From an uncultured delta proteobacterium (GTDB taxonomy: Bacteria > Desulfobacterota > Binatia > Binatales > Binataceae), in assembly GCA_963810495.1 (NCBI GenBank), contig CAWENP010000001.1, positions 72,990 through 136,989 on the forward strand: a DNA stretch of 64,000 nucleotides, given 5' to 3'. The notes below the pieces were generated by a model. That model was not told the origin of the DNA. It did no database searches and saw only the letters and a program-made list of their open reading frames with translations. The translations under genes and the position numbers were made by a program. Position 1 is the stretch's first letter, and each line of letters begins with the position of its first letter. This document shows, piece by piece, positions 1 through 23,400 of the stretch.

Positions 1-10
1 AAAGAGCACG

Positions 11-2252: not shown

Positions 2253-2830
2253 ATGGTTCATTCCGACATGCGGCAAATAGGGGGTCCATTGCGCCGCCGA
2301 AAAAAGCCTTTCGAGTCAAAAGCGTGCACGAACGTCGCGTTTGCAACCACGAACCGTCGGAGCTGGCCGACCTCTTACAAATGGAAGTCGAAGTACGGCG
2401 GGTTGGAGATCTTGCACGCGAAGCAGCTCAAGGCGCTGGAGGATGAGAATCGGTAATTGAAGCGGCTGTTGGCGGACTCGCTCCTGGACAACGCAACGCT
2501 CAAGGGCCTGCTCGGAAGAAACGTCTGAAGCCTGCGGCGCGGCGAGTAGCCGTGATTCGGGTGATGGAGCGTCACGGGCTGAGTCAGCGGCATGCGTACG
2601 AATTGGTGGGGCTGGATCGTGCGACTCTGCGCTACCGGTGCAGACGACCGGACGACTCGGCAGTGAGGCAACGACTCCGAGAGCTGGCCTCGGGGCGGGG
2701 GCGCTTCGGGAATCGGCGATTTGGGGTGGATGCCGGCGCGGGAAGGTCGCGCACTGAATCACAAGAAACTCTATCGACTGTACGGCGAGGAGCGGCTGAT
2801 GGTGCGCCGACGCAGGTCGTTTCTGTAGCG
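2253..2830 (+). mobile_element. IS3-family insertion sequence remnant (OrfA C-terminal leucine-zipper fragment plus ~90 codons of the OrfB N-terminus, with stop and frameshift; truncated at both ends)
   Basis: KWKSKYGGLEILHAKQLKALEDENR*LKRLLADSLLDNATLKGLL (OrfA-like); ERHGLSQRHAYELVGLDRATLRYR...LRELASGRGRFGNRRF then EGRALNHKKLYRLYGEERLMVRRRRSF in the next frame (OrfB start). Confidence 0.55.
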
Positions 2831-2950
2831 GAGGGCGCGACGCGAATGCGCTTACCAGCCGGCAAGGATCGCTCGTTCCGGCGCCGTGCGCGCTTCGCCT
2901 TCAGTTCGTTTAGTCATATAGCGCCGTGCATAGCTGCAGCCGGACGAGGT

Positions 2951-3811: not shown

Positions 3812-3849
3812 TGACACTGCTTTAGGCGGCGCCGTTGGCGGAGAAATTC

Positions 3850-5074: not shown

Positions 5075-5328
5075 GATTGTGGACCTCCAAAAGAAGTCTT
5101 CTTTTATGGCTGTGGCGGTGGTGCCCCGGCGTAGCGTTGAGAAAGTCGGGAAGGCCCGAGGGTGCGGGCGCGCTAAAGATCTGAGCGTGCTTGTTCTTCA
5201 GCGACCTGTCGCTGATAGAGATGCCAGACGCCGTAAAGCGACTGCGCATACTCCGATGATCGCCAAGACCAAGATCGACGGGTTCTTCTGCCTTTGATTC
5301 ATTCTCTTACGACTGCTCGCATCAATTG

Positions 5329-6048
5329 CTAAGGTTGCGGCGGCGGTGGTCGCGAGCCGCAGCAGTGCAAAGAGTCCGGAGTGCCGGCCGGCGCAGGCGC
5401 AGAGAATAATGCTTGCGCCGCAAGATTGCTTTGCACCTGATTGTTGACCTGGTTCGCCGCCGCGACGTTCTGCGAATTCATCTCGGCCATCACGAGCTGG
5501 CGGAGCATCTGAACCTGCTGTACCTGCGCGAGCGCGATTTCGTTGCTGACCTGAACCGCCTGCAGATTACCTATCGCCGTTTGGTTCTTGAGCTCAAGGG
5601 TTTGCAGCGTGGCTTGTTCGGCCTGGAAGTTCTGGGCCTGCGCCTGCGCTGAAGCGAGCGCACCGTTGAGCGTGTTCAGCGTGGTATCGATCGTCGTTTG
5701 CGGACTCTGGACTCCTGCGGTCGAGGCAGCGTTGAAGCCCGGATAGAGTTGCTGGAACTGCTGCGTCAGGCCCTGAAAGGTGTACGAAAGCCCTTCCTGC
5801 TGATTGATCAGATTGCCGAGGTTCGTGAGCAGATTCTGGTTCGACTGCCAGACCCCTGCGCCGCCGCCGGTCGTGTTCTTGATCGCGTACTGAAGTTGCT
5901 GCGCGAGGTTCGTGACGGTAGCGGTTTCCTGCTGAAGCTGCTGGAGCTGGCGGGCGAACATATTCGGGTCGAAGACAATCTGCGTGCCGCCTCCGAACTG
6001 GGCGCGGGCAGGAACGGACCTTCCGAACAGACAAACCAACGCGGCCAC
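5329..6048 (-). CDS. trbJ: TrbJ/VirB5-like conjugal transfer protein; the signal-peptide N-terminus (MKCTK.. at 6088) is in a different frame, implying a frameshift near an A-run
   Basis: IVFDPNMFARQLQQLQQETATVTNLAQQLQ and a Q/N-rich coiled coil typical of TrbJ; upstream in-frame text reads KALAHFLAIVAALVCLFGRSVPARAQ (signal peptide) but hits a stop at 6085. Confidence 0.65.
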   Translation of the reverse strand: MAALVCLFGRSVPARAQFGGGTQIVFDPNMFARQLQQLQQETATVTNLAQQLQYAIKNTTGGGAGVWQSNQNLLTNLGNLINQQEGLSYTFQGLTQQFQQLYPGFNAASTAGVQSPQTTIDTTLNTLNGALASAQAQAQNFQAEQATLQTLELKNQTAIGNLQAVQVSNEIALAQVQQVQMLRQLVMAEMNSQNVAAANQVNNQVQSNLAAQALFSAPAPAGTPDSLHCCGSRPPPPQP

Positions 6049-6268
6049 GATCGCGAGGAAATGCGCGAGAGCTTTTCGTGCACTTCATTGATGTATCTCC
6101 CTTTGATTGAGCTTCCCGTTGGTATGGAACGGAATTCCCGTTCACTCCGATGATCGCTTCTAACGGGCGTCTCGACATGACCGTGGAGTTTGTCGAGGTA
6201 CTCCGCCCAGTCGTGCAATCCGCGCGCGCGAAGCCATTCGACGGTCCAGCGATCGCCGTGCTGTTCGA

Positions 6269-8500: not shown

Positions 8501-8624
8501 CGCGATTGTGTAGTCGTCGATCGGGAATTGCGTAGTTGAGCTGGTCGGGCAGCCCGAGCAGCTTGTCGCGCTTTCGTCTTAAATCCTTGAACTCTTTGAG
8601 AAACATATTCCCACCTCTCCACCA

Positions 8625-8966
8625 TTACGCGCGCATCTCCTTCGGTGTCGGTACAGACGGCCGGATTCGGGGTGGCGACGCAGAGATTGAGGCGCGAGCC
8701 GGATAGTAGTCCTGGTAGCGGACGTGCCGGACGTAGACCCGGCTGAGCTGGGGATCGAACTTCGCCGCCTGAACCAGCGCCCAATGCCCGACCGTCAGCA
8801 GGAACGCTCCCATGGCGATCGTGTACCAGTGGAGTCCGCCGCCAAGGATCAAGGCGGCGGCGGTGATCCAGTTTGCGATCGCCAGAGGACGTTCCGCTCC
8901 CGCCAGAAGAATTGGCTGGGTGAGCGATTGATGAATCGCGCTTACCCGCCGCTCGCTTTCCGCCAT
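8625..8966 (-). CDS. trbD: TrbD/VirB3 conjugal transfer protein
   Basis: 113-aa membrane protein between TrbC and TrbE; LLAGAERPLAIANWITAAALIL is VirB3-like. Confidence 0.65.
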   Translation of the reverse strand: MAESERRVSAIHQSLTQPILLAGAERPLAIANWITAAALILGGGLHWYTIAMGAFLLTVGHWALVQAAKFDPQLSRVYVRHVRYQDYYPARASISASPPRIRPSVPTPKEMRA

Positions 8967-8979
8967 CGGCCCATCCTCC

Positions 8980-9363
8980 CTAAAAGAGCGCTCCGCCGAG
9001 CGGAAACAGCGTCGTCATCAGCTGCGTCGCGCCCAGCGCGCACGAGCCGCCGAAGGCGAGCGACGACATCTTCCGCACGCCGGTTCCGTGTTCGCTGACC
9101 GACCACATGATCCCGGTACCGATGATCGCGGCGGTGGTGATCGCGTGAGCGACCGGACCCTGCAGGTCGTTCTGCAGAGTCGTGAGTGGCGCGTCCCACG
9201 GCAGTGCGCCGCCAGCCACCGCGGCGAACGCTCGCGCAGGCCAGGCAACGGTCAGAACGCCGAAGGCGTACGTGACCATTGATGCCCACTTTGCCAACAA
9301 ACCTTTCATCTCTTTCAAACGCTTCATTTTGCGAACCTCCTTGGTTGATTGAATAAACCTCAA
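8980..9363 (-). CDS. trbC: TrbC/VirB2 pilin
   Basis: Small protein with signal peptide and two hydrophobic segments, immediately downstream of trbB and overlapping its stop. Confidence 0.65.
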   Translation of the reverse strand: MRFIQSTKEVRKMKRLKEMKGLLAKWASMVTYAFGVLTVAWPARAFAAVAGGALPWDAPLTTLQNDLQGPVAHAITTAAIIGTGIMWSVSEHGTGVRKMSSLAFGGSCALGATQLMTTLFPLGGALF

Positions 9364-10265
9364 GCTCTGATGGCTTCGAGTCCTTGATCCGGCTTCACTG
9401 GGGTTAGTGAGAATCCGTCGCCCGCGTTGTATCCGGCGACGCGGACAAGTTCCGTGACTCGTCGTCCTGCAGGCGTGCGGACGATGAAGACGAGCAGATT
9501 GATCGTTTCGGCGATTAGCTCTGGCTGAGGCGGAACGCCGGCCTCCTGCACAAGGCTCGAAAGCCTCGTCAGCGCGGCCTTCGCGCTGTTGGCGTGGATC
9601 GTCGTAACGCCTCCCGGATGGCCGGTGTTCCAGGCTTTCAGCAACGCGAGAGCTTCCGCGCCGCGCACCTCGCCGATGATGATGCGATCGGGGCGAAGCC
9701 GCATCGTCGTCCGGACGAGACGCGTCATATCGGCGCTTTCAGCCGTGTGAAGTTGAGCGAGATTATGGGCGCGGCACTGGATTTCGAGGGTGTCTTCGAT
9801 AATCACGTAGCGTTCGTTCGGGTCGGAGCGCTCGACCATTTCATTGATCATCGCGCCGGCAAGCGTCGTCTTGCCGGAGCCGGTGCCTCCGGCGACGACG
9901 ATATTCAGACGCTGGTCAATTGCTTCGCGCAAAACCTCGGCATGTGTCTTGTCGAGAATGCCATCGCGAATGTAATCGTCGAGCGTGTAAAGCACATGCG
10001 CAGGCTTGCGCATCACGCAGCAGGGCTTTCTTGCGACTGGTGGTAGGAGGCCTTCGAAGCGAATGCCATCGATTAGCAGTTCACCCTCTATGATCGGACT
10101 GTTCGTGTTCGCCACGGTTCCAAGCGACGCCGCGACGGTTCCGATAAGGCTCTCGACCTGCGAGGCTGCGAGCCGCAGGCCGGCTTCGTGCATACCTTTG
10201 CCGTAGGATTCGAACCAGACGCGGCCGTCCTCGTTGATGATGATCTCGGTGATCTGCGGGATCGC
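9360..10265 (-). CDS. trbB: TrbB/VirB11 conjugal transfer ATPase; first ~25 codons missing (in-frame stop at 10266), suggesting an N-terminal frameshift
   Basis: Walker [12 protein letters not shown]; RFEGLLPP...[12 protein letters not shown]; upstream in-frame [18 protein letters not shown] matches TrbB but ends at a stop codon. Confidence 0.75.
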
Positions 10266-10346
10266 CTATCGCCGCCAGAATTCTTGTCCCGAGTTGGCGT
10301 CTGAGGAGTTCGTCCAGGCGTCGTTCCTGAAGCTGCTGCGCCGAAA

Positions 10347-10791
10347 TCATGCCGACTCTCCGTTCCGGCTCGCGCCGCTCTTCGGCGCTGGCGCTGACTG
10401 TTCCATCCGTTTCAGCGTCTCCTCGACCTCTGCGCGCCATCCGCGATGGCGGCGCTGGCCGGAAGCGAGGGCTTGCTTGCGTTGCGCTTCGGGGATTTCC
10501 GCCAGATGGCTCAACATGCTCAGAGCGAACTGATCGATCATGGCAAGCAGCGTGGTGAGCTGGTGGGCGACCGGTTTCAGGGTTTCCGCACGCGGAAACA
10601 CGACTGGCCTGGATGATTCGCTTTTCAGCTGAGGCGAGCGCGGCGTCCGAGAAAGTCAGCCCCGAACCGCCATCAGCTTGAAAGAGACGCTCCTTCACGT
10701 ATCGCGACAGCGTGATGCCGCGCTCGTCGGCTTCGTCGCGCAGCCGATGAAATTCTTCTTCGCTCAGGTAAGCGGTGAGTTGTCGCCTCAC
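10347..10791 (-). CDS. ribbon-helix-helix (CopG-family) protein of the transfer operon; body continues in a second frame (frameshift ~10580-10605)
   Basis: MRRQLTAYLSEEEFHRLRDEADERGITLSRYVKERL (RHH) in one frame; plausible continuation KPVAHQLTTLLAMIDQFALSMLSHLAEIPEAQRKQ in ORF 10347..10601. Confidence 0.45.
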
Positions 10792-11022
10792 AGTAGTCTC
10801 TCCTTGGCGTCCTGGCTGCTCGCCCTATCGTCGGAGCCGTCTTTGTTTTCGATAGCGAATCTAAGGAACGAGAGTTGCTTGCCGGGTTGCGATTTTGCGG
10901 CGGGTTCCTTCGCAGCAATCACCGCCGGCGCGAGCGTCTCGGGAATGGTCGTTGCGCCTTCGCTCTGCGGCTCGACTTGTGCGACGGTCTCGACCTCCGG
11001 CTCTTTGTCGCGCTCGATTCGA

Positions 11023-12885
11023 TCACTCGCGTCGGGCGGCTTGATTGCCGACAGCCGTCTGAAGTACCGCTGCTTGTGGTATGTGAGCAACGGCGCTCGG
11101 ATGGGGTGCTGGCCGCGCGCGAAAATCAGCACCTCGTCCACGGCCATGCATCGCGCCTCGTCCGGGGTCATCAAGGGCCGCGCCCGTCTCCGGTTCCGAG
11201 ATGCTGGCGCCGCCCCCGGATTGTGTGCGATACGCGTGGCGAACGCTGGTCTGGCCGACCAGCCGGGAAATCTCTTCGGCACTGTCGATGTTGTTGGGCG
11301 TGAACCTGACCATGCTGTCGCAGTTGTCGGTGATCGACTCGTTGGTGCCGTAAAACTTGTAGATCTGGCTCAGGCTCTGCACCGCCAGGCAGGCACGCAC
11401 GCCGAATCCGGCCATGTGGCTCATCGCCTCGGCAAACGGCTCGAAGTGCTGGAGCAAGGCGAACTCGTCGAGCATCAGGAGCATCGGGCGGCGGTGCGGC
11501 GACACGGGGCGGCCGTCTTTGTACGCGAGCTTTGCCGTCAGCCGCCCAACGATCTGATTGATCATCAGTCTCATCAGGGGCCTGAGCCGGTTGCGGTGTT
11601 CGTGAGGCACGTTCAGGTAGAGCGATGCCGGGTGCTGGTGATTAACAAGATCATCGATCCTGAACTCTGAATACTCGGTTGCGGCGGCAATGAGCGGGTC
11701 GCGGTACAGCGGCAGCCGCCTGACTACTTCGCCCACCACGCCGCTTCGCTCTTTTTCGGCTTTGTTCAGCACCTCTCTCATGCTCTCGGCGACGCTCGGA
11801 TGGGTACGAGTCGGCTCGCCGCGCGAGGTCCGCCAGCCCATCGCCCCGGCAGGATCGTGCTCCGCCGTCATCATCCGGTTGATGGTCTCGTCGATGGGCG
11901 AGGATGGATCGCTCAAAAGCCCGACGAGGCCGCGCAGAGTCTTGGCTGGCTCGACATACAGGATGTGGAGGATGGCTCCGGTTAGGAGCGCCATACCGGC
12001 CGCGACCCAGTAATTGTCGTTTCCGAAGCCGCGGCCATCGGGGTCGACCAGCATCTGCACGATGTTCTGCACGTCGGCGGTTTCATACGGGGTCCTGAGG
12101 CGCACCTCTTCCAGCGGGTTGTACTTGACGCCGGGATCGTCCGGATTGGTCGGATTGAATCTGAAGCACAGATGGCCCATCCGTTTGCGCGCCCCGGCGG
12201 TCACCTTCCAGAGTTCTTCCTTGAAGTCGTGGACGAGCGCCGAGTGTCGCCACGTGAGCAGGGTTGGAACCATCGTGTTGACGCCCTTGCCGGCGCGGGT
12301 CGGCGCCTCGATCAGGACGTGTCCGGGGCCGCAGTCGCGCAGATAATGGAGTCTGCCGTGAACGCGCCACGCGCCCAGATAGATTCCGTCGCGAGGTTCG
12401 AGCGGCTTGAGCTTGCCCGCGTGTTCCAGCCGTTCGGCGAAGCCAGCGCGGCAGGTAACTCGGCGGAGCCAGGAACCCGGTCGCGCGCACGTCGCGTGTG
12501 TTGGCCCATCGCGCCGAACCATGCAGGTCGGGCGTGCTATCGGCGAGCCACCACGCGCGAGGTTGATTGCGCCCGCCGCGATCGCGGCGGCCACGAGCAA
12601 CGGTAGCGCCGCCTCGCGCGCGCACAGATCCCAAACCGGTTGCAGCTGCATCGCGCCGTGCCATCGCGTCCACCAGACGATCCATTCCCATGGAGCGTAT
12701 AACCTGCCGGCAAGATTTGGCCCGAGCGCCCGCGCATAACCAAGCATCCGCGCGGCGCGCTCTGTCACCCACCAGTTGATGACCAGCGCCGCCGCCGCGA
12801 AGCTCGCTACGCTGATGAACTTGACCTGGTCGAGGCGCGCCTTCGCGGACCTGTTCGCGACCCGGTAGGGACGATATTCCGCCAT
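11023..12885 (-). CDS. traG: TraG/VirD4 type IV coupling protein; the conserved HGSARWA motif sits in an alternate frame (12487-12538), implying two compensating frameshifts
   Basis: IYLGAWRVHGRLHYLRDCGPGHVLIEAPTRAGKGVNTMVPTLLTW and LLMLDEFALL in the main frame; TPDLHGSARWANTRDVRATGFLAP in ORF 12083..12772. Confidence 0.8.
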   Translation of the reverse strand: MAEYRPYRVANRSAKARLDQVKFISVASFAAAALVINWWVTERAARMLGYARALGPNLAGRLYAPWEWIVWWTRWHGAMQLQPVWDLCAREAALPLLVAAAIAAGAINLARGGSPIARPTCMVRRDGPTHATCARPGSWLRRVTCRAGFAERLEHAGKLKPLEPRDGIYLGAWRVHGRLHYLRDCGPGHVLIEAPTRAGKGVNTMVPTLLTWRHSALVHDFKEELWKVTAGARKRMGHLCFRFNPTNPDDPGVKYNPLEEVRLRTPYETADVQNIVQMLVDPDGRGFGNDNYWVAAGMALLTGAILHILYVEPAKTLRGLVGLLSDPSSPIDETINRMMTAEHDPAGAMGWRTSRGEPTRTHPSVAESMREVLNKAEKERSGVVGEVVRRLPLYRDPLIAAATEYSEFRIDDLVNHQHPASLYLNVPHEHRNRLRPLMRLMINQIVGRLTAKLAYKDGRPVSPHRRPMLLMLDEFALLQHFEPFAEAMSHMAGFGVRACLAVQSLSQIYKFYGTNESITDNCDSMVRFTPNNIDSAEEISRLVGQTSVRHAYRTQSGGGASISEPETGAALDDPGRGAMHGRGRGADFRARPAPHPSAVAHIPQAAVLQTAVGNQAARRE

Positions 12886-12890
12886 GACGA

Positions 12891-13901
12891 CTACCTCTCC
12901 AGCCCGCGCTCTACGCTCATTTGCCGCTGGCGGTCGCGGGCGCGGGTCTTGATCACGTCATTGGATTGCTGGCGGTCGCGAAGCTCGCGCTCATGGTTTT
13001 CGGAAAGCTGCCATGACCGTTCGTCGATCCGCTGCGCCAGTCCGAGCCCGGTGAGGTAATTGAGCCGATCTATCTCCTGCTCGGCTCGAATCCGAGGCCC
13101 CTCATTGAGTGGTTGGAACTGGTCGTATGTGACGATGCCGTTCGCATCAGCCTTTCTCTGCAAGGCGCGGTCGATCTCGGTCCACTGCTCGCGTCTGACC
13201 ACGCGTTCACGTGCCCGCAGCATCTCCGGCTCCAGACGCGGACCCAGTTCGCGCGTCGCGATCTCCTGGCTGCGGATACGAATGCCCGAGCGCAAATACT
13301 CGCGGTTGATCTCCAGTGGCCTGCCATTCTCCCGAACGCCACGGACCAGCAGATGAACATGCGCGTCGTCCGTGTTGTGATGATCGATCGCGACCCACTC
13401 CAACTTTGTGTCGAGGTCGCGTCCCATCCGACTAACCAGTTCCCGCACATGTTCGCGAAGGTTTAGACGGTCCGCGTCTTCGGGGGACACAATGAAGCGC
13501 CACATCAGCTCGTCGCTCTTTTCCCAGTCTCTGACTGTGGCGAGCATGTCGATTTCCTCGCGCTCCGCGTCGAACCCCAACCCCTTGGCAAATTCCTGTT
13601 GAGCGCCGGGGCGCGCGAGGTAGCGAGCGTGCGCTGCCCACGCACCGCTGCGGCGGTTGCGCGAGAATGACGCCTTGACCACGCTGCGCCGCGCGTATGC
13701 CGGTGGTTCTGAGACGCGAACTCGCGCCGCGCGCATCCCGCTCAGACTTCCGCTCGGCTGCTGATGGCGGAGACCCCGTCGCATGCCCATCCGCCCCAGT
13801 GCGCGCGCCCACCACGGCACGAGTTTGCGCGGACGCTCCGCATGCTCGTGGCGAAGCTTGATATCCACCTCCCTCTGTCGCAGGAACCTAGGCCGTTTCA
13901 T
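12891..13901 (-). CDS. conjugative relaxase (HUH relaxase/mobilisation nuclease, VirD2-like, DUF3363-type N-terminus); 336 aa, possibly C-terminally short
   Basis: AHARYLARPG...LEWVAIDHHNTDDAHVHLLVRG (HUH motif)...REYLRSGIRIRSQEIATRELGP; directly upstream of traG. Confidence 0.7.
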   Translation of the reverse strand: MKRPRFLRQREVDIKLRHEHAERPRKLVPWWARALGRMGMRRGLRHQQPSGSLSGMRAARVRVSEPPAYARRSVVKASFSRNRRSGAWAAHARYLARPGAQQEFAKGLGFDAEREEIDMLATVRDWEKSDELMWRFIVSPEDADRLNLREHVRELVSRMGRDLDTKLEWVAIDHHNTDDAHVHLLVRGVRENGRPLEINREYLRSGIRIRSQEIATRELGPRLEPEMLRARERVVRREQWTEIDRALQRKADANGIVTYDQFQPLNEGPRIRAEQEIDRLNYLTGLGLAQRIDERSWQLSENHERELRDRQQSNDVIKTRARDRQRQMSVERGLER

Positions 13902-14298
13902 CGCACACCTCGGTCAATGCCTCGCTGAGGGCTAGTACCAGCTTGGTCGGATTCTCCGGTGTCTGTCCGCCAAGCGCCTCGATGATCTCGCGCACCTGCC
14001 CGCTGCTGAGCGTGATCGCATGGAGATCCTGTGCGCGCCGCCATGACTTCCACGCGCGCTTGCCGGTCGCCCGTTCGTCGAGTTTCTTGCGCCCGATTGT
14101 CGCAACGAGTGCGCGCTGCGAAGTCGTAAGTTTGGTGGCTTCCTGCGCGACGCTCAGTAATGCGCCCAGCAAAAAGTCCGGCGGCTCCAGATCGAGCCCC
14201 GCCAGTGCGATCAGTCCACCGAGGTTGGCGAGATGATGCACACGGAGCCCTTGCTCAGGGCTGTGACTGTCGCCATTGCCGTTACCGTTGCTGCTCAT
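13888..14298 (-). CDS. hypothetical protein between traF and relaxase (candidate relaxosome accessory protein)
   Basis: ATG at 14298, 5 nt after the traF stop; 136 aa MSSNGNGNG...; no recognisable motif. Confidence 0.4.
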   Translation of the reverse strand: MSSNGNGNGDSHSPEQGLRVHHLANLGGLIALAGLDLEPPDFLLGALLSVAQEATKLTTSQRALVATIGRKKLDERATGKRAWKSWRRAQDLHAITLSSGQVREIIEALGGQTPENPTKLVLALSEALTEVCDETA

Positions 14299-14303
14299 GG
14301 CAT

Positions 14304-14909
14304 TCACCACACGACGACCGGTTTGATCTCGCCGCGTACGTTGGCGAGCGGAACCGGGCCGAAGTAGCGCGAGTCCCAACTCCGGCGATCGTTAAAACCG
14401 AACAACCACACCTGGCCAACCGCGACTCGATGGCTGCCCCACGCGACATGAGGAAGTGGACGGCCCGCGCTGTCGTGCGTTGCGACGGCGCAGCGTTTGA
14501 AACGCACGCCGTTGACTGCGACCCATCCGGGTTGGATCACGACAACGTCCCCGGCAAGAGCGCCTACGATCTTGCCAACCGGCTCCGCGTTACCAACGCA
14601 CGCGCCGGTGCGCAGATATCCGTGGGCCAGACCTTCCTGGGCGAGCGCAATCGGCAGGCAGGCAACGACCAGATCGCCACGTTGGAATTTCCCGGAGACA
14701 ACGCGATAGACCCCGACGGGAGCGGCACTGTCGGTGTCCGAAATCAGCACGCCGAACGCATTGCCGACCGCGATCAGGACCGCTACTGCAATCGCAATTC
14801 CGGCCATCGCCCCGATGGGTCCGCGCGCACCTTCCAGACGCTGTAAATGCAGGCGCTGAGCAAGCGATCCGGCGGGGTTTTCTGCCGTGCTGCACAGTGT
14901 GCCGCTCAT
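14304..14909 (-). CDS. traF: TraF-type conjugative signal peptidase (S26 family)
   Basis: Signal-peptidase I-like WDSRYFGP motif; N-terminal TM segment; position next to the relaxase as in Ti/ICE tra modules. Confidence 0.7.
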   Translation of the reverse strand: MSGTLCSTAENPAGSLAQRLHLQRLEGARGPIGAMAGIAIAVAVLIAVGNAFGVLISDTDSAAPVGVYRVVSGKFQRGDLVVACLPIALAQEGLAHGYLRTGACVGNAEPVGKIVGALAGDVVVIQPGWVAVNGVRFKRCAVATHDSAGRPLPHVAWGSHRVAVGQVWLFGFNDRRSWDSRYFGPVPLANVRGEIKPVVVW

Positions 14910-15087
14910 GACCGCCTCCGAGGGGGAAAGGCCGCGAGTTCGTTGGAGAATCCGCCGAAAATGCCGCGCCGTACCGCAGGTCCTTTATCTTGCTCTACGA
15001 ACGACCGGCCTTCCCCCCTCTCCAACTCGACCTCCAAATCCCCTCTTTCCGCGCGCCGCAAAGCGGCGGAGAAATTCCCGAAAATCC

Positions 15088-15333
15088 TCACTGCACTTTC
15101 TCCGCAGAAGGCTCGCTTGCGCGGCCATTCAGTTTCCGGCCCGGACGAGGCGCACCTTCGAGCTCGGCCTTGATCTGTTTGCAGAGCCGCCACATCGCCG
15201 CCGTAATCGTCTCGCCCAGATCGAAGCCGGCGTCTTCGGCCCGGCTGCGTAGTTGGTCGATCTCCCGTTTGAGCGCAGCTGGCAGCTTGAAGGTGATCGC
15301 TTCGCTTTCCTGTTTGCGTTTGAGAACTCCCAT
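15088..15333 (-). CDS. small ribbon-helix-helix-like DNA-binding protein
   Basis: 81 aa MGVLKRKQESEAITFKLPAALKREIDQLRSRAEDAGFDLGETITAAMWRL (beta-strand, two helices); ATG at 15333. Confidence 0.4.
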   Translation of the reverse strand: MGVLKRKQESEAITFKLPAALKREIDQLRSRAEDAGFDLGETITAAMWRLCKQIKAELEGAPRPGRKLNGRASEPSAEKVQ

Positions 15334-15365
15334 CGCACTTCTCCTTGAAAAATTGGATTGCGGAT

Positions 15366-16502
15366 TTACTTCCCGTAGGGGCCGGGGAATACGAGGTCCT
15401 GGGTGATCATCACGTCGAACTGATAGCCCGGCCGGATTTCGATCGTTGGCGGCCGATTCAATCCCTGCCCCATCATCTGCTGACCCAGCGCACCGAATTG
15501 TCCCGAGGCGGCTGAACCCGCCGTCTGGCTCGCCATCGCCCACTGATTCGGTTGGTAGTAACCGTACGGTCCGTATGTGCCACCGCCTCCGAGCGTCGCC
15601 ATCTGGCCGACCGCCTGTCCGGCGCTGATCAGGCTCATCACGGCGGCAGTTCCAAACGTTGCAAGGTAATGGTGGTCGACCTGATCGGAGAAGCCGGCGT
15701 AACCGCTCTGATCGGCCCCCGGCATCATTGGCAGATTCATGCTGGCGGTGTTGGGAAAGATGAGACGCTGCCACGCGATCTGAACGCGCTGCTGGCCGTA
15801 TGAAGACGCGTTCTGATAGGCGCCGATGAGGCGACTCCCCTGCGGGATCAGAACCGATCTGCCGGTCGCGCTGTCGAGAACGTTCTGGCTGACCTGCGCG
15901 AGAATCGGTCCGGGCAGATCCGAATTGATGCCGCTGATCAGGACTGCCGGAAGAATGCTTCCCGCCATCACCGTATACGGCGAAGCTGCGGGATGAACGC
16001 TTATCGCCGGGTTGTTCTGATCACCGGAAATATACGAGTCGGCCTGTTGTCCTTTAGCGCTCGCGATCTCGAGTGTTCCGCCACTATGAAACGCCTGCAC
16101 CATCTCCGGCGATTCGAGCGCCTTCATGTACTTCTCTTCGGCCCATTGCGCATACCGGCTGGGAGGCTTCGGCGCGCTCGGCTGAACCGGCGCCTGGGAG
16201 ATCGGCAGGGCCGGTATCGGCATGACCGTCGGTGCCGCGTGGGGCAGTGCGCCATGAGCCGCGAGGTCCTCGATTTCGCCGCGATCTCGGGCTGCCGAGC
16301 CTGGGTCATCCGCCAATTTCTGGGAAGCGGAACTTTGACTGTTTCCCGAGGACTGGACACCGAGTGCAAGCGCCACTCCTCCGACCATCGCGACCGCGAC
16401 GAAAACAACGCCGAGAAGGCGATTGAACCGGCCGCCCCCGAGGTGCTCCTGTTCCTGCTCTTCCTGTTCCTGAATCACTTCTGCGGTTGCCATGGCTGTC
16501 AC
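15366..16502 (-). CDS. trbI: TrbI/VirB10 conjugal transfer protein
   Basis: N-terminal TM, Pro-rich linker, C-terminal IPQGSRLIGAY...RVQIAWQRLIFPN...GYQFDVMITQDLVF (VirB10 signature). Confidence 0.8.
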   Translation of the reverse strand: MTAMATAEVIQEQEEQEQEHLGGGRFNRLLGVVFVAVAMVGGVALALGVQSSGNSQSSASQKLADDPGSAARDRGEIEDLAAHGALPHAAPTVMPIPALPISQAPVQPSAPKPPSRYAQWAEEKYMKALESPEMVQAFHSGGTLEIASAKGQQADSYISGDQNNPAISVHPAASPYTVMAGSILPAVLISGINSDLPGPILAQVSQNVLDSATGRSVLIPQGSRLIGAYQNASSYGQQRVQIAWQRLIFPNTASMNLPMMPGADQSGYAGFSDQVDHHYLATFGTAAVMSLISAGQAVGQMATLGGGGTYGPYGYYQPNQWAMASQTAGSAASGQFGALGQQMMGQGLNRPPTIEIRPGYQFDVMITQDLVFPGPYGK

Positions 16503-17446
16503 CTCGCTCCGCCCGCATAGGAGATGGTCACGCGGTCCTGATCGCGGCCGACGCCCGAGACCAAAATCGCGTCGCTGAAGAGCCGGTCGACGACGTAGTA
16601 ATTTCCCTTGACCCGGTAGTTCACCATCTGGGTTCCGCTGCCTGCGTTGATGAGCAGCGCGGGAGCTTCGCTCGACTTCATTCCGGCCGGCATCTGCACA
16701 TACACGTGAGAGCCGTCATCGAAGGCACGAATCGGCTTCCACGGAATGTTTGGCCCTGCGACGGTGTAGGCGAAGTTGAGCTGTGCCGGATCGACCGCTG
16801 CGACCTTCACGACGTTGTCGGAATCACCCGGCGGATCGACCGCTTCCTGCTTGGCCCTCGATGCGGCTGCGTCGGTAGCTTCCATCGCCGTGGTCAGCTC
16901 CTCGGGGTAGTAGAACTCCACCTCCTGCATCGCGCGTCCGCGCGACCGGAGCAGCAGGTGGTAAATGTGCTTCGTCGTGTAGATCGTCAGGTTGGTTTCG
17001 ATACCGGGAATCTGCGGCTTCACCGCCAGGTGAGGGACGGCATTGCGCGGGTCGCCAGAGGCGGCCGGCGTCGCCATCCAGCGTTCCGTATCTCCCAGCG
17101 CAACATCGGTAATCGTCTCTCCCGGCTGCAGCTGGATGTCGGTGGTGCGCAGTGGCGCGCAATCGACCGCCGGCTCCGGTTTTTGGTTGTAGGGATAGAG
17201 CGTGTACTCGGCCGTTCGGTAGACCGGCCATTTGCCGCCTTGCTGATGCTCCTTGATCGCAGCCTGCACCTCGGCTGGCTGCTGGGCGAGCAGTTGCGCT
17301 CCGGTCGGCGGTGGTGGCGTCGCGGACGACTCCGCCGGGGCCTCTGTTACGATTTTCAGTGGCGGCGGCGTGGATGCTTGTTGCTGACTCGCGCATGCAC
17401 TCAAGAAGAGTGCGAACGTCATCGTGGCAGCTGCCATAAGCTTCAT
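16499..17446 (-). CDS. trbG: TrbG/VirB9 conjugal transfer protein
   Basis: Signal peptide/lipobox (LSACAS), VirB9-like beta-rich body; overlaps the trbI start by 4 nt. Confidence 0.8.
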   Translation of the reverse strand: MKLMAAATMTFALFLSACASQQQASTPPPLKIVTEAPAESSATPPPPTGAQLLAQQPAEVQAAIKEHQQGGKWPVYRTAEYTLYPYNQKPEPAVDCAPLRTTDIQLQPGETITDVALGDTERWMATPAASGDPRNAVPHLAVKPQIPGIETNLTIYTTKHIYHLLLRSRGRAMQEVEFYYPEELTTAMEATDAAASRAKQEAVDPPGDSDNVVKVAAVDPAQLNFAYTVAGPNIPWKPIRAFDDGSHVYVQMPAGMKSSEAPALLINAGSGTQMVNYRVKGNYYVVDRLFSDAILVSGVGRDQDRVTISYAGGAR

Positions 17447-17470
17447 CGCTCTTCCTCCCTTGTGGCCGGA

Positions 17471-18139
17471 CTATCCCTGCTGCTCGGTCCAGCTGATTTG
17501 CGTCACGTAAAATCCGAGCGGATTGCTGATGATCGCGGCGTCGGAATTGGGCGGGACGATCTGCGTCTGGAGTACCGCCTCCCAGTGCGTGGGCGCTCCG
17601 ATAACGACTCCGTTGAGATCGCGTTGCTGCTCCGACCAGCGCACCTGGTAGCTGCTGGGCGAGAGCTGAAGGATCGAATCGATCTGGATCGAAACGGTCT
17701 GCTTCTCCGCGAGCTTGAAGGGGTTACGAGTGAAGCCGTCGGAGTGGTAGTAGGCGTCGAGAAATCTGTCCGCCGCGCCGCGCGCATGCGCGAGCAGCGA
17801 ATTGAGCATCTGATGTTCGACCTGCGAATCGCTGGTGACCGATCGTGCATTGCGAATAAAGGCCGCGACCTCGTAACGCTGCATTCGCGCGGTTACATCG
17901 GGCACGGACGTGGGAGTGAGCGGCTGGGGAACGGTCAGCGCATATCCGAGTTTGTCGACTTCGACGACATAGGGAATGTAGCGGCTTCGGCTGATGAGCC
18001 AGACCATCCCGCTGGCGAGAATCAGCGAGAGCAGAAGCAGCCCGCCGGCCGCTATCTGCCAGTTGCGTTTGCCGAGAACGAGATCGGCGTAACGCTCATC
18101 CCATTCACGACGCGCTTCGACGTAAGGATTTGCGGCCAT
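17471..18139 (-). CDS. trbF: TrbF/VirB8 conjugal transfer protein
   Basis: MAANPYVEARREWDERYADLVLGKRNWQIAA..TM..NTF2-like body typical of TrbF. Confidence 0.75.
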   Translation of the reverse strand: MAANPYVEARREWDERYADLVLGKRNWQIAAGGLLLLSLILASGMVWLISRSRYIPYVVEVDKLGYALTVPQPLTPTSVPDVTARMQRYEVAAFIRNARSVTSDSQVEHQMLNSLLAHARGAADRFLDAYYHSDGFTRNPFKLAEKQTVSIQIDSILQLSPSSYQVRWSEQQRDLNGVVIGAPTHWEAVLQTQIVPPNSDAAIISNPLGFYVTQISWTEQQG

Positions 18140-18330
18140 ACGACGAACACTCCTCGGACGGCCCAGTGACGGCCCGTCCTCTGTCCGTAGATTGTCCGCA
18201 CTTTGTCCGAGAACTCTTCGCGACAGGTTCCAAAAGACCCCGAAGCGAAGTGCGCGAAATCTTGATATTTATTGGGGATTCTCGGTTTGGCTTGGAGCCT
18301 GTGGCAGCATGGAACCGAATGGCATTCAGG

Positions 18331-18363
18331 AGGTCGCGCGTTCGATCCGCGTCAGCTCCACCA
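18331..18363 (+). other. tRNA 3'-end-like fragment (variable loop AGGTC, T-arm GCGCG-TTCGATC-CGCGT, acceptor 3' strand, discriminator, CCA); a 5' half could not be folded, so a candidate att-site remnant rather than a tRNA gene
   Basis: aggtcgcgcgttcgatccgcgtcagctccacca; opposite-strand translation gives the tell-tale LVELTRIERATS. Confidence 0.35.
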
Positions 18364-18645
18364 ATAAAATCAGGCATTTACGGCGATTTGAGGGCGACCG
18401 AAATCGGTTAGAAATGCAAGATGTATGCAGGCGACGACCCCCAGTCGCGTCGCCTTTAGCTCCGTAATTGAGCCTCCGTCTATGCCGGCTATGCCGGTGC
18501 CACGATTTCCCAAAGCCCAAAGTTCTACTGCTGGGGCTCGTCGAGCAAATCGTCTATCGCTACAAAACAGACCGACAAGACCGAGTGCGAAACAATACGT
18601 TCCACCTATCGCGAGTATTCACGGCACAGACGGAAATAGCCAAGT

Positions 18646-18960
18646 ATGAGAATGTCGCGCTATTGGAATCGTCTTAAGAGATGGTGGTACCGACAATCCG
18701 GCTCAGAAAGGTTGATGGTCAGTTTTCAGGCTGTCATCGCCTTGGCGACCATTGTCGCTCTTCTTCAATGGAGTGCGTTGCGTAAAGCCAACGATCTGGC
18801 GCGACGGAACTTCGAGGCGAGTGAACGGGCCGCTGTCAATCTTGGCGGCCCTGACGGAACGCTTGCGGAGTTGAAAGAACAGGATGGAGAGAAAGCAATC
18901 TTGCTTCACTTTTTCAATTCCGGCAAGAGCGTAGCAAAACGCGTGTCGATTAATGCTTAG
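18646..18960 (+). CDS. hypothetical small membrane protein (low-GC island)
   Basis: 104-aa ORF with one TM segment; ~50% GC. Confidence 0.3.
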   Translation: MRMSRYWNRLKRWWYRQSGSERLMVSFQAVIALATIVALLQWSALRKANDLARRNFEASERAAVNLGGPDGTLAELKEQDGEKAILLHFFNSGKSVAKRVSINA

Positions 18961-19153
18961 ACCGATCCACAACACCCACCTCCCCTGCAACATCTGAGCA
19001 GATATCAAGTCACGATGGTTCCACCGGGTATGAATGCTGTGGTCAGCAATCCAGTCTCATTCGAAATGGAGTTGAAGTAAAAGTTGTGGTCAGTTTTCCT
19101 ACATTGACGAAGTTCCCGAATATCGACTTCCATCTGCCGACCGCCTTGCGGCA

Positions 19154-19546
19154 ATGATAAAGCCGCCCAAGGGACCACCGGGACCGCTCCCGGAACGGCT
19201 CGAAGTAGACGGCGAAATCGAGTATTGTGATCTTTTCGGTGAATATCACTGCGAAGCATTCACACTACAGTATATACTGCCTCCAGTCGGTCGCTTTCTT
19301 CAAGCAGTGAACATTGGGCACTGTGGACTGGACGCGCCCATCTGGAAAAGCACTCCGCAAGGCGGAGCCGCTATTAGAGCTTTCATGGCAAAATTCGGCA
19401 ATGTAACATTCCAAGCCCCCATTGCTCGGTGTCCTCGGCCCGGTGATTTAGACGAGCAATGGGAAGAACAAGAGGGCCCATATCAAATAACGCCCTCTTT
19501 CCCGTTTCCATTCAGGCCCTCCGCCACTAAAAAGGGTTCCGACTGA
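19154..19546 (+). CDS. hypothetical protein (low-GC island)
   Basis: 130-aa ORF, Cys/His-containing, no recognisable family. Confidence 0.3.
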   Translation: MIKPPKGPPGPLPERLEVDGEIEYCDLFGEYHCEAFTLQYILPPVGRFLQAVNIGHCGLDAPIWKSTPQGGAAIRAFMAKFGNVTFQAPIARCPRPGDLDEQWEEQEGPYQITPSFPFPFRPSATKKGSD

Positions 19547-19967
19547 ATCCGACCTGTCACACAGATCATGCTCACATCGAGAAGCAGTCGCCCCGCGACG
19601 CTCAGCGGCTCGCCCAGAATGTCCGTGAAAGCCAACGTCTCAAGACAGCACGAGGATCGAGACGACGCGGCGGCTGCGTTCACGCGAACGGAAACGACTC
19701 GACCCTGTAGTTGAGACTCGGCGCGGGCGTTAAGCCGCCAGGCTGCAAGCGCCAAAGCCAATTCGGGCAAGGTGGAAGCGGCGGAAGGCGGGACGCTCTT
19801 GCTCTGCTGACTCGGGTGTTTCAACCGACGTTGGTTTATCTGTTCCGTCGGCCGCTCGGCCTGACCGACAAGCACGGAGGCCAGCAGGCATCGGTAGGCG
19901 CGAATCTTGCCCATGAATAATCTTGCGGATGATTGAATTGGTGCCCCACAAAAAAAAGCTCGGCGCC

Positions 19968-20750
19968 TTAGAACGTCCACCCGACAATCGACTTGAGAAA
20001 CACCCCGTCACTCGCGCGCGTCACTCCCAATCCGACGCCGAGATTCAGCTCGAGTTGCGGAATGAAATAGAAGTTCAGGGCCGGCACGATGAAATGCTGC
20101 TGCTCCTGCACCTTTTCCAGCGGCTGAATAGGCCCCATGTCGCCATAGTACTCAAGTGCCGGCGAAACCCAGCGGCTCAAATCATAGAGTAGCTCGCCCG
20201 ACGGCTCGAATTGAAACCCGCGATGCGTCTGCGGGCCGCTGAACGGCTTTATAAGCGGAAAGTCCGCGACCACGCGAAATGGCTTGTAGGTCGCGCCGAC
20301 GATCGGCCGCAACTCGAGCGTCAGAGGATTTTCCTCAGCCGCGCGCCGCATGTAGTCGAGCTCAATATTGCCGCCGAACTGCACCGGCCATTCGAAGGTC
20401 TGCGGAATGCCGAAGTGAACCTTCGTGCGCGAACCCGAGTATTCGTAATGTCCGTTCGAGAGCTTCGCCGTGGCGAAATACTGGCCGACCTCGAGCCAGC
20501 GCAGGACGCCATAGGTGGCCTCGAGCGTCTCGTGTATCTGATGCACATCCATCTGGCTCTTCGCCAACTCTCCGGTCGCGGTCGAGGTCGTATTGGAATG
20601 GAGTTCGAGCGTCAGATGACCGACCGGCGCGGTGTCGGTATCGTAAATCTGGATTTCGTAGAAGTCGATCGCGTGCGATGGGCGCGCGGCCGCCAGCATC
20701 GCGAGGATGCACACCGCGAGCGCGAAAACATAATGGGAAAATTTCGTCAC
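19968..20750 (-). CDS. outer-membrane beta-barrel protein of the transporter / MetA-pathway (phenol degradation)-like OMP family
   Basis: Signal peptide VTKFSHYVFALAVCILAMLAAARPSHA (GTG at 20750), alternating beta-strand pattern, C-terminal aromatic ...GWTF. Confidence 0.5.
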   Translation of the reverse strand: MTKFSHYVFALAVCILAMLAAARPSHAIDFYEIQIYDTDTAPVGHLTLELHSNTTSTATGELAKSQMDVHQIHETLEATYGVLRWLEVGQYFATAKLSNGHYEYSGSRTKVHFGIPQTFEWPVQFGGNIELDYMRRAAEENPLTLELRPIVGATYKPFRVVADFPLIKPFSGPQTHRGFQFEPSGELLYDLSRWVSPALEYYGDMGPIQPLEKVQEQQHFIVPALNFYFIPQLELNLGVGLGVTRASDGVFLKSIVGWTF

Positions 20751-21548
20751 GCGCGTCACGCAGGAAATTCTCGGCGCGATTCCTTGAATTTTGTGTCGTC
20801 GGCCGATTCCAGAACGATAGCGGACCAACCTATGTCGGCGCGTCCCCTCTCGTAAAATGGTGAGGCCGTACTCGCGCGGTTGTCAAGATATTCGGCTACG
20901 GTGATCGATCGGGAAAGTCTCAGACTTCTCGCCGCATGCGGAATTTTAAACGCGCACAAGGTGAGAGGTCGACCTGCCGGGCTCTGGCCGGCGCCTCGGT
21001 GGTCAGTGGCATCGCGACCCTGCTGGTCTGCGCGACGGGCCGGCAGACGGCGCTGGGCATGCTCGCCGCCACATTGATCGCTAAACCGCCTCCGACCGCG
21101 TTTGAAATCGGGCTGCGCGGGTTCAGCGTGCTGTTCGTGCTGACCGAGAGCCTGTGGTTTCATCGCGGCTGGCTTGAATCTCTTCTCCGCTTGCAATTGA
21201 GCCTTCGAACGAGCAGACTGCGTCGCGAGGCGTTTTGCGGAAACGCTTCTACGTGCAGCAGAAGAGGGGAGCTGCAAGATGCGCAATCGGGACCAATACC
21301 GCTGCGATCGCAAATATCCAAACGGCTTCGAATTTCGGGCTAGCGGCCTCGTGAGAGATTTCATCACCGTGCACACCTTCGGCGGGCGCGGCTCGCCCTC
21401 GTTCTAGACCTCCCGGCAAAAGAGTGGTCAGACGCTGCGATGCGTGCTGACCTTTGCGGGCCTTCGGAATTCCGTCCCCTGACGGGTGTTCTGTTGGATC
21501 GCAAAACCATAGAAATCCGACGCTAGCCGGCGGACTGGAGAGCCTTGC

Positions 21549-21635
21549 GGCTCCTCCAATCGATAGTCATCCACGGCTAGAGGACAGTCCAAGCTCTATC
21601 TACCTTAAGTGGTGGAGAGGTTGAGATCTGCCCTG
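21549..21635 (+). promoter_or_regulatory. conserved 5' leader element of DUF1111 gene copy 1 (ggctcctcca..atagtcatccacggc..gtggtggagaggttgagatctgcc)
   Basis: Shares two conserved blocks with 23313..23400 although the downstream coding regions have very different codon usage. Confidence 0.45.
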
Positions 21636-21697
21636 ACCCCCCGTCGCCGTCTGTTCAAATACAGACAAGCAGCGGGCAGATTCTAAGGAAGACAAAC

Positions 21698-23185
21698 ATG
21701 AAATATGGTATCAAGATACCAGTAGCAGTAGGACTCATCTTGCTTTTGTGTGTAGGTTCTGCTCGTTCGCAAACTCACTTTAGGAATCACACCGCCGGCT
21801 ATTCCGGAATGGGAGACCCACTTCCGGAAATAACAAACAATCCAACTGACCTGATAAACTTCGTCAATGGTCAGTTGAATATGAAAGAAATCGAGACCTT
21901 GAATCCGGCAACTAACCCCACCGGTCCAGCTGGTCAATTAGGGCCTTTATTCAATAATACATCCTGTGCAGCTTGTCATAGTAACCCTGCAATGGGAGGG
22001 GGCGGACTGAATCTATTTGAGCAACGCCTATCAACCGGAGGACCTCCAGTAAGAATCTTTGCTGTAGACAACATGCTCATGGGAGGTCCAATAATGGAGG
22101 ATACGACTGTGATCTTTCCATATGGGACAGCGGCTGCCACACTCGGTGGACAGATAGGATTGATGGATAATTCGGCCTCTACTTGTCAACAAGTTGAATT
22201 GGCGAGAGGATTTTCCTTTAAATTGCCAATTTGTATTCCAGGAACTTCTAATGATACGGGATTAACTGGAAGGCCAACTTGCATTGCTCACCGTGAGGCA
22301 TTGCCAATATTCGGAGATGGCTTGGTTGAAGCAACTGCCGATGCAACCTTTGAGCAAATCGCAGCTAGCCAGGATCCATCGATTCGCGGATCGACTCGGA
22401 TGATTGTCGAGACGAACCAGAATGGACCACCTACATCTGAAGTGTCACCAACCACTTTGGCAGCGCTAGCAGCTGCTCATGTTGGCAGATTTGGATGGAA
22501 AGATGAGCATTCTAGTCTGCTGGCTTTTGCCGGCGACGCCTATTTGAACGAAATTGGCATTACTAATGATTTGAATAAGAATCCAAACACAACTTGTGCA
22601 ATGGGTGTCACTCAGTTTGGAGTAGTCCTGCAGTCGCCTGACGACCCGGAAGATACCGTTGATTCGACCGGACGTGCAGATTTAGATCGCTTTACTGATT
22701 TCATGCGCGGATTACAGCCTCCACCCGAAGCTCCACAAACTGCTGATACCGAGGCCGGACAGCAATTATTTGAACAAATAAATTGCTCAGGTTGTCATGT
22801 CGAGTCGATTACGACTGCATCTAATCCATCTGCATTCATTCCACCGACAATCGATGGCAAGCCTCTTACTTCGACCCTTAATTCGGCGTTAACCAACGTG
22901 ACCTATCACCCATATAGCGATTTTCTGATGCACGATATGGGCAGCATGGGAGATGGAGTTAACGATAATGAATCACCTACGGATATGGGTGGACCAACTA
23001 TGATGCGTACTATGCCATTGTGGGGAATACGTGCTCGTGAAGTCTTTTTACATGATGGTCGTGCTGCCGACATAGCTACCGCGATAGTGTTGCACGACGG
23101 GCAAGGTAAGGCTGCATCGCAAGCGTTTCAGGCCTTAAGCCCTAGCGAGCAACAGCAGATTGTGGATTTTATCGAAACTCTATAA
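21698..23185 (+). CDS. di-heme cytochrome c peroxidase-like oxidoreductase (DUF1111 family), AT-rich paralog
   Basis: Signal peptide; two CxxCH motifs (CAACH, CSGCH); FGDGLVEA, GRFGWK, PLWGIRAREVFLHDGRA blocks. Confidence 0.75.
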   Translation: MKYGIKIPVAVGLILLLCVGSARSQTHFRNHTAGYSGMGDPLPEITNNPTDLINFVNGQLNMKEIETLNPATNPTGPAGQLGPLFNNTSCAACHSNPAMGGGGLNLFEQRLSTGGPPVRIFAVDNMLMGGPIMEDTTVIFPYGTAAATLGGQIGLMDNSASTCQQVELARGFSFKLPICIPGTSNDTGLTGRPTCIAHREALPIFGDGLVEATADATFEQIAASQDPSIRGSTRMIVETNQNGPPTSEVSPTTLAALAAAHVGRFGWKDEHSSLLAFAGDAYLNEIGITNDLNKNPNTTCAMGVTQFGVVLQSPDDPEDTVDSTGRADLDRFTDFMRGLQPPPEAPQTADTEAGQQLFEQINCSGCHVESITTASNPSAFIPPTIDGKPLTSTLNSALTNVTYHPYSDFLMHDMGSMGDGVNDNESPTDMGGPTMMRTMPLWGIRAREVFLHDGRAADIATAIVLHDGQGKAASQAFQALSPSEQQQIVDFIETL

Positions 23186-23312
23186 GCGCTGCGACCGTGG
23201 GTTGGGGGCATCCCACGCTAAAGCTCGGAACCCCCTTCACGCCGGAGCATCACCGTCAGACGCCGGTAGCAATCAGGTTGAAGGACCGAACATCATAGCC
23301 TGCCCCGTCTGA

Positions 23313-23400
23313 GGCTCCTCCAGTTAATAGTCATCCACGGCAAAAGCGTTCCGATCGCTACTACCACTCATACGTAGTGGAGAGGTTGGAGTCTGCCTTG
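23313..23400 (+). promoter_or_regulatory. conserved 5' leader element of DUF1111 gene copy 2
   Basis: ggctcctccagttaatagtcatccacggc ... gtagtggagaggttggagtctgcc, homologous to 21549..21635. Confidence 0.45.

Follow-up and report, generated by a model that had tools for sequence, protein, structure and literature searches.

Beside a cluster of conjugation genes in an uncultured member of the Binatia, to our knowledge a phylum known only from metagenomes, lies the 3' end of a tRNA with no 5' part joined to it, and the question is whether this is a tRNA gene, a decayed copy of one, or the scar that an integrating element leaves at its boundary. The DNA analysed, referred to as the window, is a 64-kb stretch of a Binataceae genome, and its features are listed in Table 1. 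Coordinates are those of the window unless a locus is named; loci in other genomes carry L numbers.

Table 1. Features of the window at and around the tRNA fragment, from right to left.
Feature	Coordinates	Strand	Evidence or remark
Native chromosomal flank downstream of tRNA gene	18364..23326	.	L111 99-99.7%, L119 94.7-99.1%; collinear with T4SS-free strains
Shared ~16 nt past CCA, ATAAAATCAGGCATTT	18364..18379	+	Column conservation in intact and orphan copies from many genomes
Displaced 3' fragment of tRNA-Ala(GGC), G30-A76	18317..18363	+	100% over 47 nt; no tRNA called; L119 homology begins here
Element-side arm (P arm) and 5' region of trbF	18140..18316	.	No L119 or L111 homology; homologous in L109 and L096
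Three direct TGTCCG repeats, 11-bp phasing (18182, 18193, 18204)	18182..18209	+	Only occurrence in the window
trbF (VirB8 family), first gene of transfer cluster	17471-18139	-	Pfam VirB8 3e-43; NCBIfam TrbF
trbG	16499-17446	-	Pfam CagX; NCBIfam TrbG_Ti above cutoff
trbI	15366-16502	-	Pfam TrbI
ORF	15088-15774	-	No Pfam match
traF signal peptidase	14304-14909	-	Pfam/NCBIfam
TraD-like protein	13888-14379	-	Pfam/NCBIfam
RlxS-like relaxase	12891-13901	-	Best NCBIfam match RlxS
traG (TraG coupling protein)	11023-12885	-	Pfam/NCBIfam
ORF	10081-10791	-	Between traG and trbB
trbB	9360-10193	-	Pfam/NCBIfam
trbC pilin	8980-9363	-	Pfam/NCBIfam
trbD/VirB3	8625-8966	-	Pfam/NCBIfam
trbE, split by frameshift	5808-8500	-	Pfam/NCBIfam
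TrbL N-part fused to RepB-primase domain	2951-5074	-	Pfam/NCBIfam
IS3-family transposase remnant, frameshifted, truncated (OrfA-like frames)	2330-2815	-	Lies between TrbL-primase ORF and ArdC
ArdC-like anti-restriction gene, C-terminally short	1376-1990	-	Pfam ArdcN 1e-33 and partial MPTase-PolyVal

The fragment contains a 33-mer, AGGTCGCGCGTTCGATCCGCGTCAGCTCCACCA, that is present on the plus strand at 18331-18363, occurs once in the window and appeared in none of 100 dinucleotide-preserving shuffles. An earlier reading made from the sequence alone (the sequence-only reading) had described a tRNA 3' end with variable loop, T-arm, acceptor 3' strand and CCA, and all of these are indeed present and identical to tRNA-Ala(GGC), but the extent of 33 nt was too short; the tRNA-derived stretch is really 47 nt, and each of its positions matches linear nt 31-77 of the 77-nt Binataceae tRNA-Ala(GGC) consensus (canonical G30-A76). 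It opens with two nucleotides of the 5' anticodon stem, followed by the full loop ATGGCAT, in which 18321-18323 is the anticodon GGC, and by the 3' anticodon stem; then come the variable loop, T-arm, acceptor 3' strand, discriminator A and CCA. The acceptor 5' strand and the D-arm are lacking. Neither a D-arm nor an anticodon arm had been folded earlier; the D-arm is truly absent, but half of the anticodon arm is there from 18317 onward. The start formerly placed at 18291 has to be moved, as 18291-18316 is not tRNA-derived and is part of the element. A displaced 3' fragment identical to the 3' part of the cognate tRNA, one of the features looked for in tDNA islands, is thus present in 47 of 47 nt, and the junction reads ...GGCAGCATGGAACC-GAATGGCAT...CCA in the window. 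Matches of the window to tRNA loci by blastn extend beyond CCA to 18372-18380, and the shared segment at 18364-18379 probably belongs to the attB/attP identity block, as judged from its conservation among the copies.

ARAGORN, which had been suggested as the check, calls neither a tRNA nor a tmRNA in the whole 64-kb window, and Rfam gives no match at its gathering score, so the sequence is not a complete tRNA gene, as had been suspected; of the complete cloverleaf that a functional gene requires only nt G30-A76 are present. The MFE fold is no better than that of shuffles (z = 0.24). Nothing else in the window resembles a tRNA-Ala gene, and there is no second copy of the fragment and no intact tRNA-Ala within the 64 kb. 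The opposite strand had been said to give a translation typical of tRNA genes, and a minus-strand frame over the fragment does read ...LVELTRIERATS and then stops, but the 90-aa minus-strand ORF listed at 18105-18377 lies in a different frame.

Comparison with near-identical strains shows the state of the site before insertion. The right flank of the fragment, with a di-haem oxidoreductase gene and its neighbours, is present in contigs of very close relatives, among them L119 (ENA ERZ25039537 contig_34509, 335 kb), which was reached through the 263-aa protein of window 19971-20759. Contigs of sister strains reached through ppk and DHOR end before the site. L119 carries an intact tRNA-Ala(GGC) at 13612-13688. 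It aligns with window 18317-19654 at 99.1% identity, and the match stops exactly at 18317, such that the breakpoint in a close relative coincides with the fragment boundary as expected for an unoccupied tDNA site. Past the 5' half of its tRNA gene L119 encodes an N-formylglutamate amidohydrolase (FGase), two transglutaminase-domain proteins, recN-like SMC_N proteins and NAD kinase, with no transfer genes, and it represents the unoccupied attB. A third strain, L111, is 99-99.7% identical on the right side and has the same orphan fragment, with unrelated and partly decayed DNA to its left (dapA, cNMP-binding protein) and a break 1 nt further in. Left of 18317 the window has no homology to either L119 or L111. 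Empty, T4SS-occupied and otherwise-occupied states thus occur at one nucleotide position in near-isogenic strains, which matches the prediction of site-specific insertion. Homologues of the window's right-flank genes are also found downstream of intact tRNA-Ala genes in L028 and L030.

We note several small differences in this otherwise well-conserved region. Within the 99% identical stretch shared by L119 and the window, a single T-loop difference inside the tRNA is seen at 18344, where the intact L119 gene has A57 (TTCAATC) and the window and L111 orphans have G57 (TTCGATC). At 19654/19655 the window lacks 1213 bp, encoding three small ORFs, that are present in L111 (6746-7958) and L119 (11105-12317), and L118, a contig from another strain, begins close to this gap at window 19455. 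The window has two short ORFs (104 and 130 aa) at 18646-19546 where L111 has one 299-aa gene (5738-6637); either the window carries a disrupted form of this gene or its sequence contains indel errors.

The same tRNA position is used repeatedly in this family of bacteria. A 28-mer, GCGCGTTCGATCCGCGTCAGCTCCACCA, scanned in reference genomes (one per species), identifies 110 stretches, nearly all in Candidatus Binataceae/Binatus MAGs; ARAGORN finds complete tRNA-Ala(GGC) genes in most of them, and a minority are orphans like that of the window. The breakpoints of the non-intact copies are tightly clustered, with 18 of 22 starting in the 8 nt from linear nt 26 to 33, a span that runs along the 5' side of the anticodon stem and takes in the first base of the loop. 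They belong to the known class of tyrosine-integrase sites that are centred on the anticodon. Two of the orphans are flanked by relatives of the window's element that end at the same nucleotide: L109 (87% nucleotide identity to window 14499-18371) and L096 (81% to 17678-18380), with homology lost just past the fragment in both. An intact cognate tDNA upstream in the same orientation, a further feature of tDNA islands, is absent from the window and is seen in relatives. In JAJXYF010000035.1 the intact tRNA-Ala L005 lies 50 kb upstream of the L096 orphan in the same orientation, and four more contigs carry intact-then-orphan pairs 10-39 kb apart (L047/L037, L069/L068, L044/L072 and L015/L003). 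The same tRNA-Ala position also serves several small unrelated islands, each with an integrase of its own.

A second element family is also found at tRNA-Ala, represented by the orphans L041, L051, L062 and L070, in which TGTCCGAGA lies 8 nt left of the breakpoint; this motif is also in the arm of the T4SS element, and the two have nothing else in common. In OY970324.1 the orphan L041 (618 kb) is 60 kb upstream of the intact L019 (678 kb) with both on one strand, so that the expected order is inverted, and another variant tRNA-Ala copy may lie further upstream. The orphans L068 and L070 are followed by a further element-type module. L028 contains two complete tRNA-Ala(GGC) genes 4 kb apart (1588-1663 and 5649-5724), and the flank beyond the second one matches window 21298-22725.

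To the left of the fragment is a P-type Trb conjugation module recognised with Pfam and NCBIfam, in which all genes are transcribed on the minus strand. It has what is looked for in an MPF-T (Trb) ICE, namely T4SS genes, a coupling protein and a relaxase, with trbE frameshifted and TrbL partial and fused. The distance of about 190 nt from trbF noted earlier agrees with our measurements, there being 177 nt from the start codon at 18139 to the fragment and 191 nt to the 33-mer. The order trbF-G-I-x-traF-traD-like-relaxase-traG-x-trbB and the relaxase of about 340 aa recur in L124, L127, L129 and L141, and gene order and short relaxase are thus family traits and not damage. Mobile-element DNA extends leftwards at least as far as the ArdC-like gene, the window begins inside it, and the other end of the element is outside the window. 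Within the window no tRNA 5' half, conserved upstream flank, other T-arm and CCA fragment or sequence like the downstream module described below was found, and neither an integrase nor an excisionase was found at positions 1-18316, nor is an integrase present elsewhere in the 64 kb. A plasmid collection gave no megablast match to window 15000-21500. A match of window 2372-2815 to L039, beside an intact tRNA, was considered as the left element end and was rejected, reflecting instead a shared IS3-family transposase remnant; the remnant is 77% identical to L039 361-802, just downstream of the intact tRNA-Ala.

Several genes of the module have unusual structures. The ORF at 6269-8500 covers positions 32-712 of the TrbE model, and the last 100 residues are in the overlapping ORF 5808-6656, through either a real frameshift or an assembly indel. 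In the 707-aa product of the TrbL-primase ORF, part of the TrbL N-terminal region is joined to both the N- and the C-terminal RepB_primase domain, through either a genuine fusion or a deletion. Genes trbF-G-I normally follow trbL, and here they are at the opposite end of the cluster from the TrbL-primase ORF. TraG is only 50% identical between the window and L124 (15272-17383), whereas the flanking genes are 86-98% identical, and L141 has a TraG of the window type (85%); this pattern points to mosaic exchange of the coupling protein within the element family.

What the fragment is, where exactly it breaks, that a near-identical strain has an empty site and that related elements share this end are direct observations, and it is very probable that 18317-18363 is the attR junction between an ICE, with its P-type Trb T4SS, TraG and RlxS-like relaxase, and the Binataceae chromosome, formed by insertion at the anticodon loop of tRNA-Ala(GGC). 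The sequence-only reading had taken the fragment as the remnant of integration into a tRNA gene at the boundary of a transfer element, and the L119 empty site and the shared ends of L109 and L096 bear this out, as do the mostly intact tRNA-Ala(GGC) genes that carry the 28-mer and the conjugation module on the left flank. The probable scenario is that a tyrosine integrase recombined the element's attP with the chromosomal tRNA-Ala(GGC), the crossover being centred on the anticodon loop, and split the gene at about nt 29/30. The 5' part of the gene would then have joined an element-borne 3' copy at the far end (attL, outside the window) to regenerate a working gene, while the native 3' part, G30-A76, would have stayed with its native downstream flank as the orphan. 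Excision would rejoin both ends.

This arrangement matches described islands. Most islands in the Islander collection (3760 of 3919) leave a 3' fragment, and anticodon-centred insertions are the commonest class (2083 of 3919); by the published rule the regenerated gene and the displaced fragment mark the island ends (PMC4383910). As in Islander class A (Williams 2002; Hudson et al. 2015, PMC4383910), in which insertion of the tyrosine-integrase type splits a tRNA gene and the end of the island is marked by an equally oriented 3' fragment, the window's fragment begins in the anticodon stem/loop and extends through CCA. Unlike the described Islander cases, the target is tRNA-Ala(GGC) in an uncultured member of the Binatia, with the integrase and the regenerated gene outside the window.

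Among characterised systems, the RlxS/Trb ICE family comes closest; its type is ICEMlSymR7A of Mesorhizobium, which has an RlxS relaxase and a Trb T4SS, targets tRNA-Phe and uses IntS with five arm-type sites in a 283-bp attP (PMC11963761). Both elements have a P-type Trb system and a traF-x-relaxase cluster with RlxS as best NCBIfam match, both integrate into the 3' part of a tRNA gene, and in both short repeated motifs flank the core. They differ in several respects. The target is tRNA-Ala(GGC) in the window rather than tRNA-Phe (with IntS next to attL), trbF-G-I precede traF rather than following trbL, and the arm motif is TGTCCG rather than TGKTGGTATC. The relaxase of about 340 aa is much shorter than the 654-aa RlxS of ICEMlSymR7A; at 336 aa the window protein covers model positions 54-324 of 654 and scores 195.6 bits against NF041267, below the equivalog cutoff of 850. 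No HTH_17 or excisionase match was found upstream of traF that would correspond to rdfS, the first gene of the ICEMlSymR7A traF-msi107-rlxS operon, and Pfam gave no match for 15088-15774 or for the small ORFs in that stretch. By relaxase score, missing rdfS and target tRNA, the window's element falls outside the ICEMlSymR7A family.

In the arm between trbF and the fragment lies a triple TGTCCG pattern that none of 100 shuffles reproduced and that is the arm's best-conserved block in L109 and L096. The repeats are candidate arm-type sites for an integrase or excisionase, or alternatively a trb operator. Scanning metagenomes with TrbF yielded 80 relatives, the closest of which (e.g. L124, whose TrbF is 98% identical) depart from the window sequence immediately beyond the start of trbF. 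Their layout nonetheless follows one plan, with trbF, two to three (A/T)GTCCG repeats (one in two loci), about 100 nt, and then a tRNA 3' fragment beginning two bases into the anticodon stem. In L124 this fragment derives from tRNA-Thr(CGU); a reverse-transcriptase (RVT_1) gene at L124 7377-8339, and also an RND efflux operon, lie just past it. Whichever tRNA is involved, the T-arm of the fragment is 193-212 nt from trbF in 20 family members, with cores from Ala-GGC (eight loci, the window counted), Thr-CGU (seven), Lys-UUU (four) and Lys-CUU (one), and the TGTCCG repeats are kept in relatives with tRNA-Thr or tRNA-Lys cores. Fragments of Arg-CCU and of a class II tRNA are further from trbF and lack the repeats. 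The fixed distance and the repeats across different tRNAs indicate that the tRNA-derived core is built into the element family and has been swapped between tRNA targets. That the closest TrbF relatives are located at other tRNAs counts against the attR reading.

A possible counterpart of this arm is found on the other side of regenerated genes. In 22 of 114 tRNA-Ala copies CCA is followed by a module of about 76 nt, which starts ATAAAATCA..., contains two CGGACA and two TGTCCG motifs at +25 to +64 after the tRNA, and ends with TTGTCAAG, past which the loci diverge fully. Among the carriers are L005 and L081, which are the intact genes of the two genomes with T4SS relatives, and the module is missing from the window's native flank and from the empty-site strain L119. 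In L081, from the same MAG as L109, genes for a Phage_integrase and, beside it, an HTH_17 protein are 3.3-5 kb from the intact tRNA, and all loci with an L081-type tyrosine integrase or its remnants bear the module or a degenerate copy (L081, L028, L090, L080 and L121-123). L028 has the TGTCCG module and the C-terminal half of such an integrase between its two tRNA-Ala genes. Conversely, eight loci that have the module and 3 kb or more of sequence beyond it lack an L081-type integrase within 3-8 kb, and L157 has housekeeping genes directly after a degenerate module, showing that the module need not belong to a live element.

The integrase acting at the window junction would be a tyrosine recombinase, possibly of the L081 type, and the TGTCCG repeats would be arm-type protein-binding sites matched by the TGTCCG/CGGACA motifs in the module that follows the regenerated gene. 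The module and the repeats would fit an attP in two parts, its core flanked on either side by arm-type sites, an arrangement that ICEMlSymR7A also shows. The tie of the L081-type integrase to the T4SS element is circumstantial, through occurrence in the same MAG and the shared motif. The L081 integrase family is very large, and the contexts of its members gave no firm tie to a T4SS element.

Among alternative explanations, the one that survives best grants that the junction is genuine but takes it to be dead, the element being a truncated relic with attL lost or rearranged and the fragment a fossil scar incapable of excision. The disordered left part, with the frameshifted IS3-family remnant at 2330-2815, an ArdC cut short, a frameshifted trbE and TrbL fused to a primase domain, means that the element may be a non-mobile relic, and the 18.3 kb of element DNA without integrase or excisionase points the same way. 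However, the backbone from trbF to trbB consists of nine full-length genes, with order and lengths as in relatives, frameshifts are common in these long-read MAG assemblies (trbF and trbG of L109 are split into several frames), and the remainder of the element lies outside the window. We regard a dead relic as a possible but rather unlikely state of this element.

It is considerably less probable that the fragment came from a different, earlier island, as part of a tandem array or a replaced element, and that the T4SS element merely abuts it. The tRNA-Ala(GGC) gene is indeed a hot spot for several unrelated elements, L111 has other DNA at the same fragment, and the L068 and L070 orphans precede a further module; however, the elements in the window, L109 and L096 are three independent T4SS elements that have a common arm and join at the same nucleotide, and the fixed spacing to trbF in 20 members argues that the fragment is part of the element family's architecture. 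A decayed tRNA pseudogene or chance tRNA-like sequence, arising without site-specific recombination, would account for the missing 5' third and the silence of the tRNA finders but is barely credible, given an exact match over 47 nt, a sharp breakpoint common to about 18 orphans in different genomes and the intact gene at the empty site in L119, which refutes a pseudogene; a chance match of this kind is not expected. Finally, tmRNA genes are another common island target, and permissive Rfam searches give alignments with permuted tmRNA and with the 3' end of tmRNA, with an acceptor end, CAGCUCCACCA, resembling that of tmRNA, but scores of 8.4 and 11.7 bits (gathering score 47), the lack of an ARAGORN tmRNA call and exact identity to tRNA-Ala(GGC) through the anticodon loop led us to reject an ssrA 3' end, standard or permuted, which has almost no probability left.

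The attR reading, in which the transfer cluster begins beside the junction, raises a further question of how these genes are expressed. Neither a sigma-70-like promoter nor an intrinsic terminator was detected at 18050-18700, and since the cluster starts 177 nt from the junction behind an arm with no detected sigma-70-like promoter, it is perhaps transcribed only after excision. In Tn916, transfer-gene expression is said to depend on circularisation, a finding attributed to Celli and Trieu-Cuot in 1998. As in that element, the transfer cluster starts at one end and reads inward, and a circular form would be needed for transcription from the far end to run into it. Tn916 is a Gram-positive element that does not target a tRNA and whose T4SS is of another kind, and the coupling here is only possible, but circularisation may place integrase-end promoters upstream of trbF and so produce Tn916-like gating in a Trb-type ICE. 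A conjecture that combines these ideas, and that we consider unlikely to hold in full, is of a Binatia ICE family with a fixed arm carrying three TGTCCG sites and interchangeable tRNA 3'-half cores, in which the transfer cluster of about 15 kb is transcribed only after excision. Target specificity would then be re-set in modular fashion by exchange of Ala-GGC, Thr-CGU, Lys-UUU and Lys-CUU cores, and if the gating is true the TGTCCG sites would serve both recombination and transcriptional control.

Insertion by tyrosine integrases at tRNA anticodon loops is textbook biology, and the junction described here is well supported and ordinary in kind; its host is an uncultured soil bacterium of the Binatia. 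It fixes one boundary of a conjugative element in this group to the nucleotide, and identifies tRNA-Ala(GGC) as a busy integration hot spot in the Binatia. The new detail is the 177-nt arm with three helically phased TGTCCG repeats, and the succession of trbF, three TGTCCG repeats and a tRNA 3' half provides a signature by which related elements in MAGs can be delimited.
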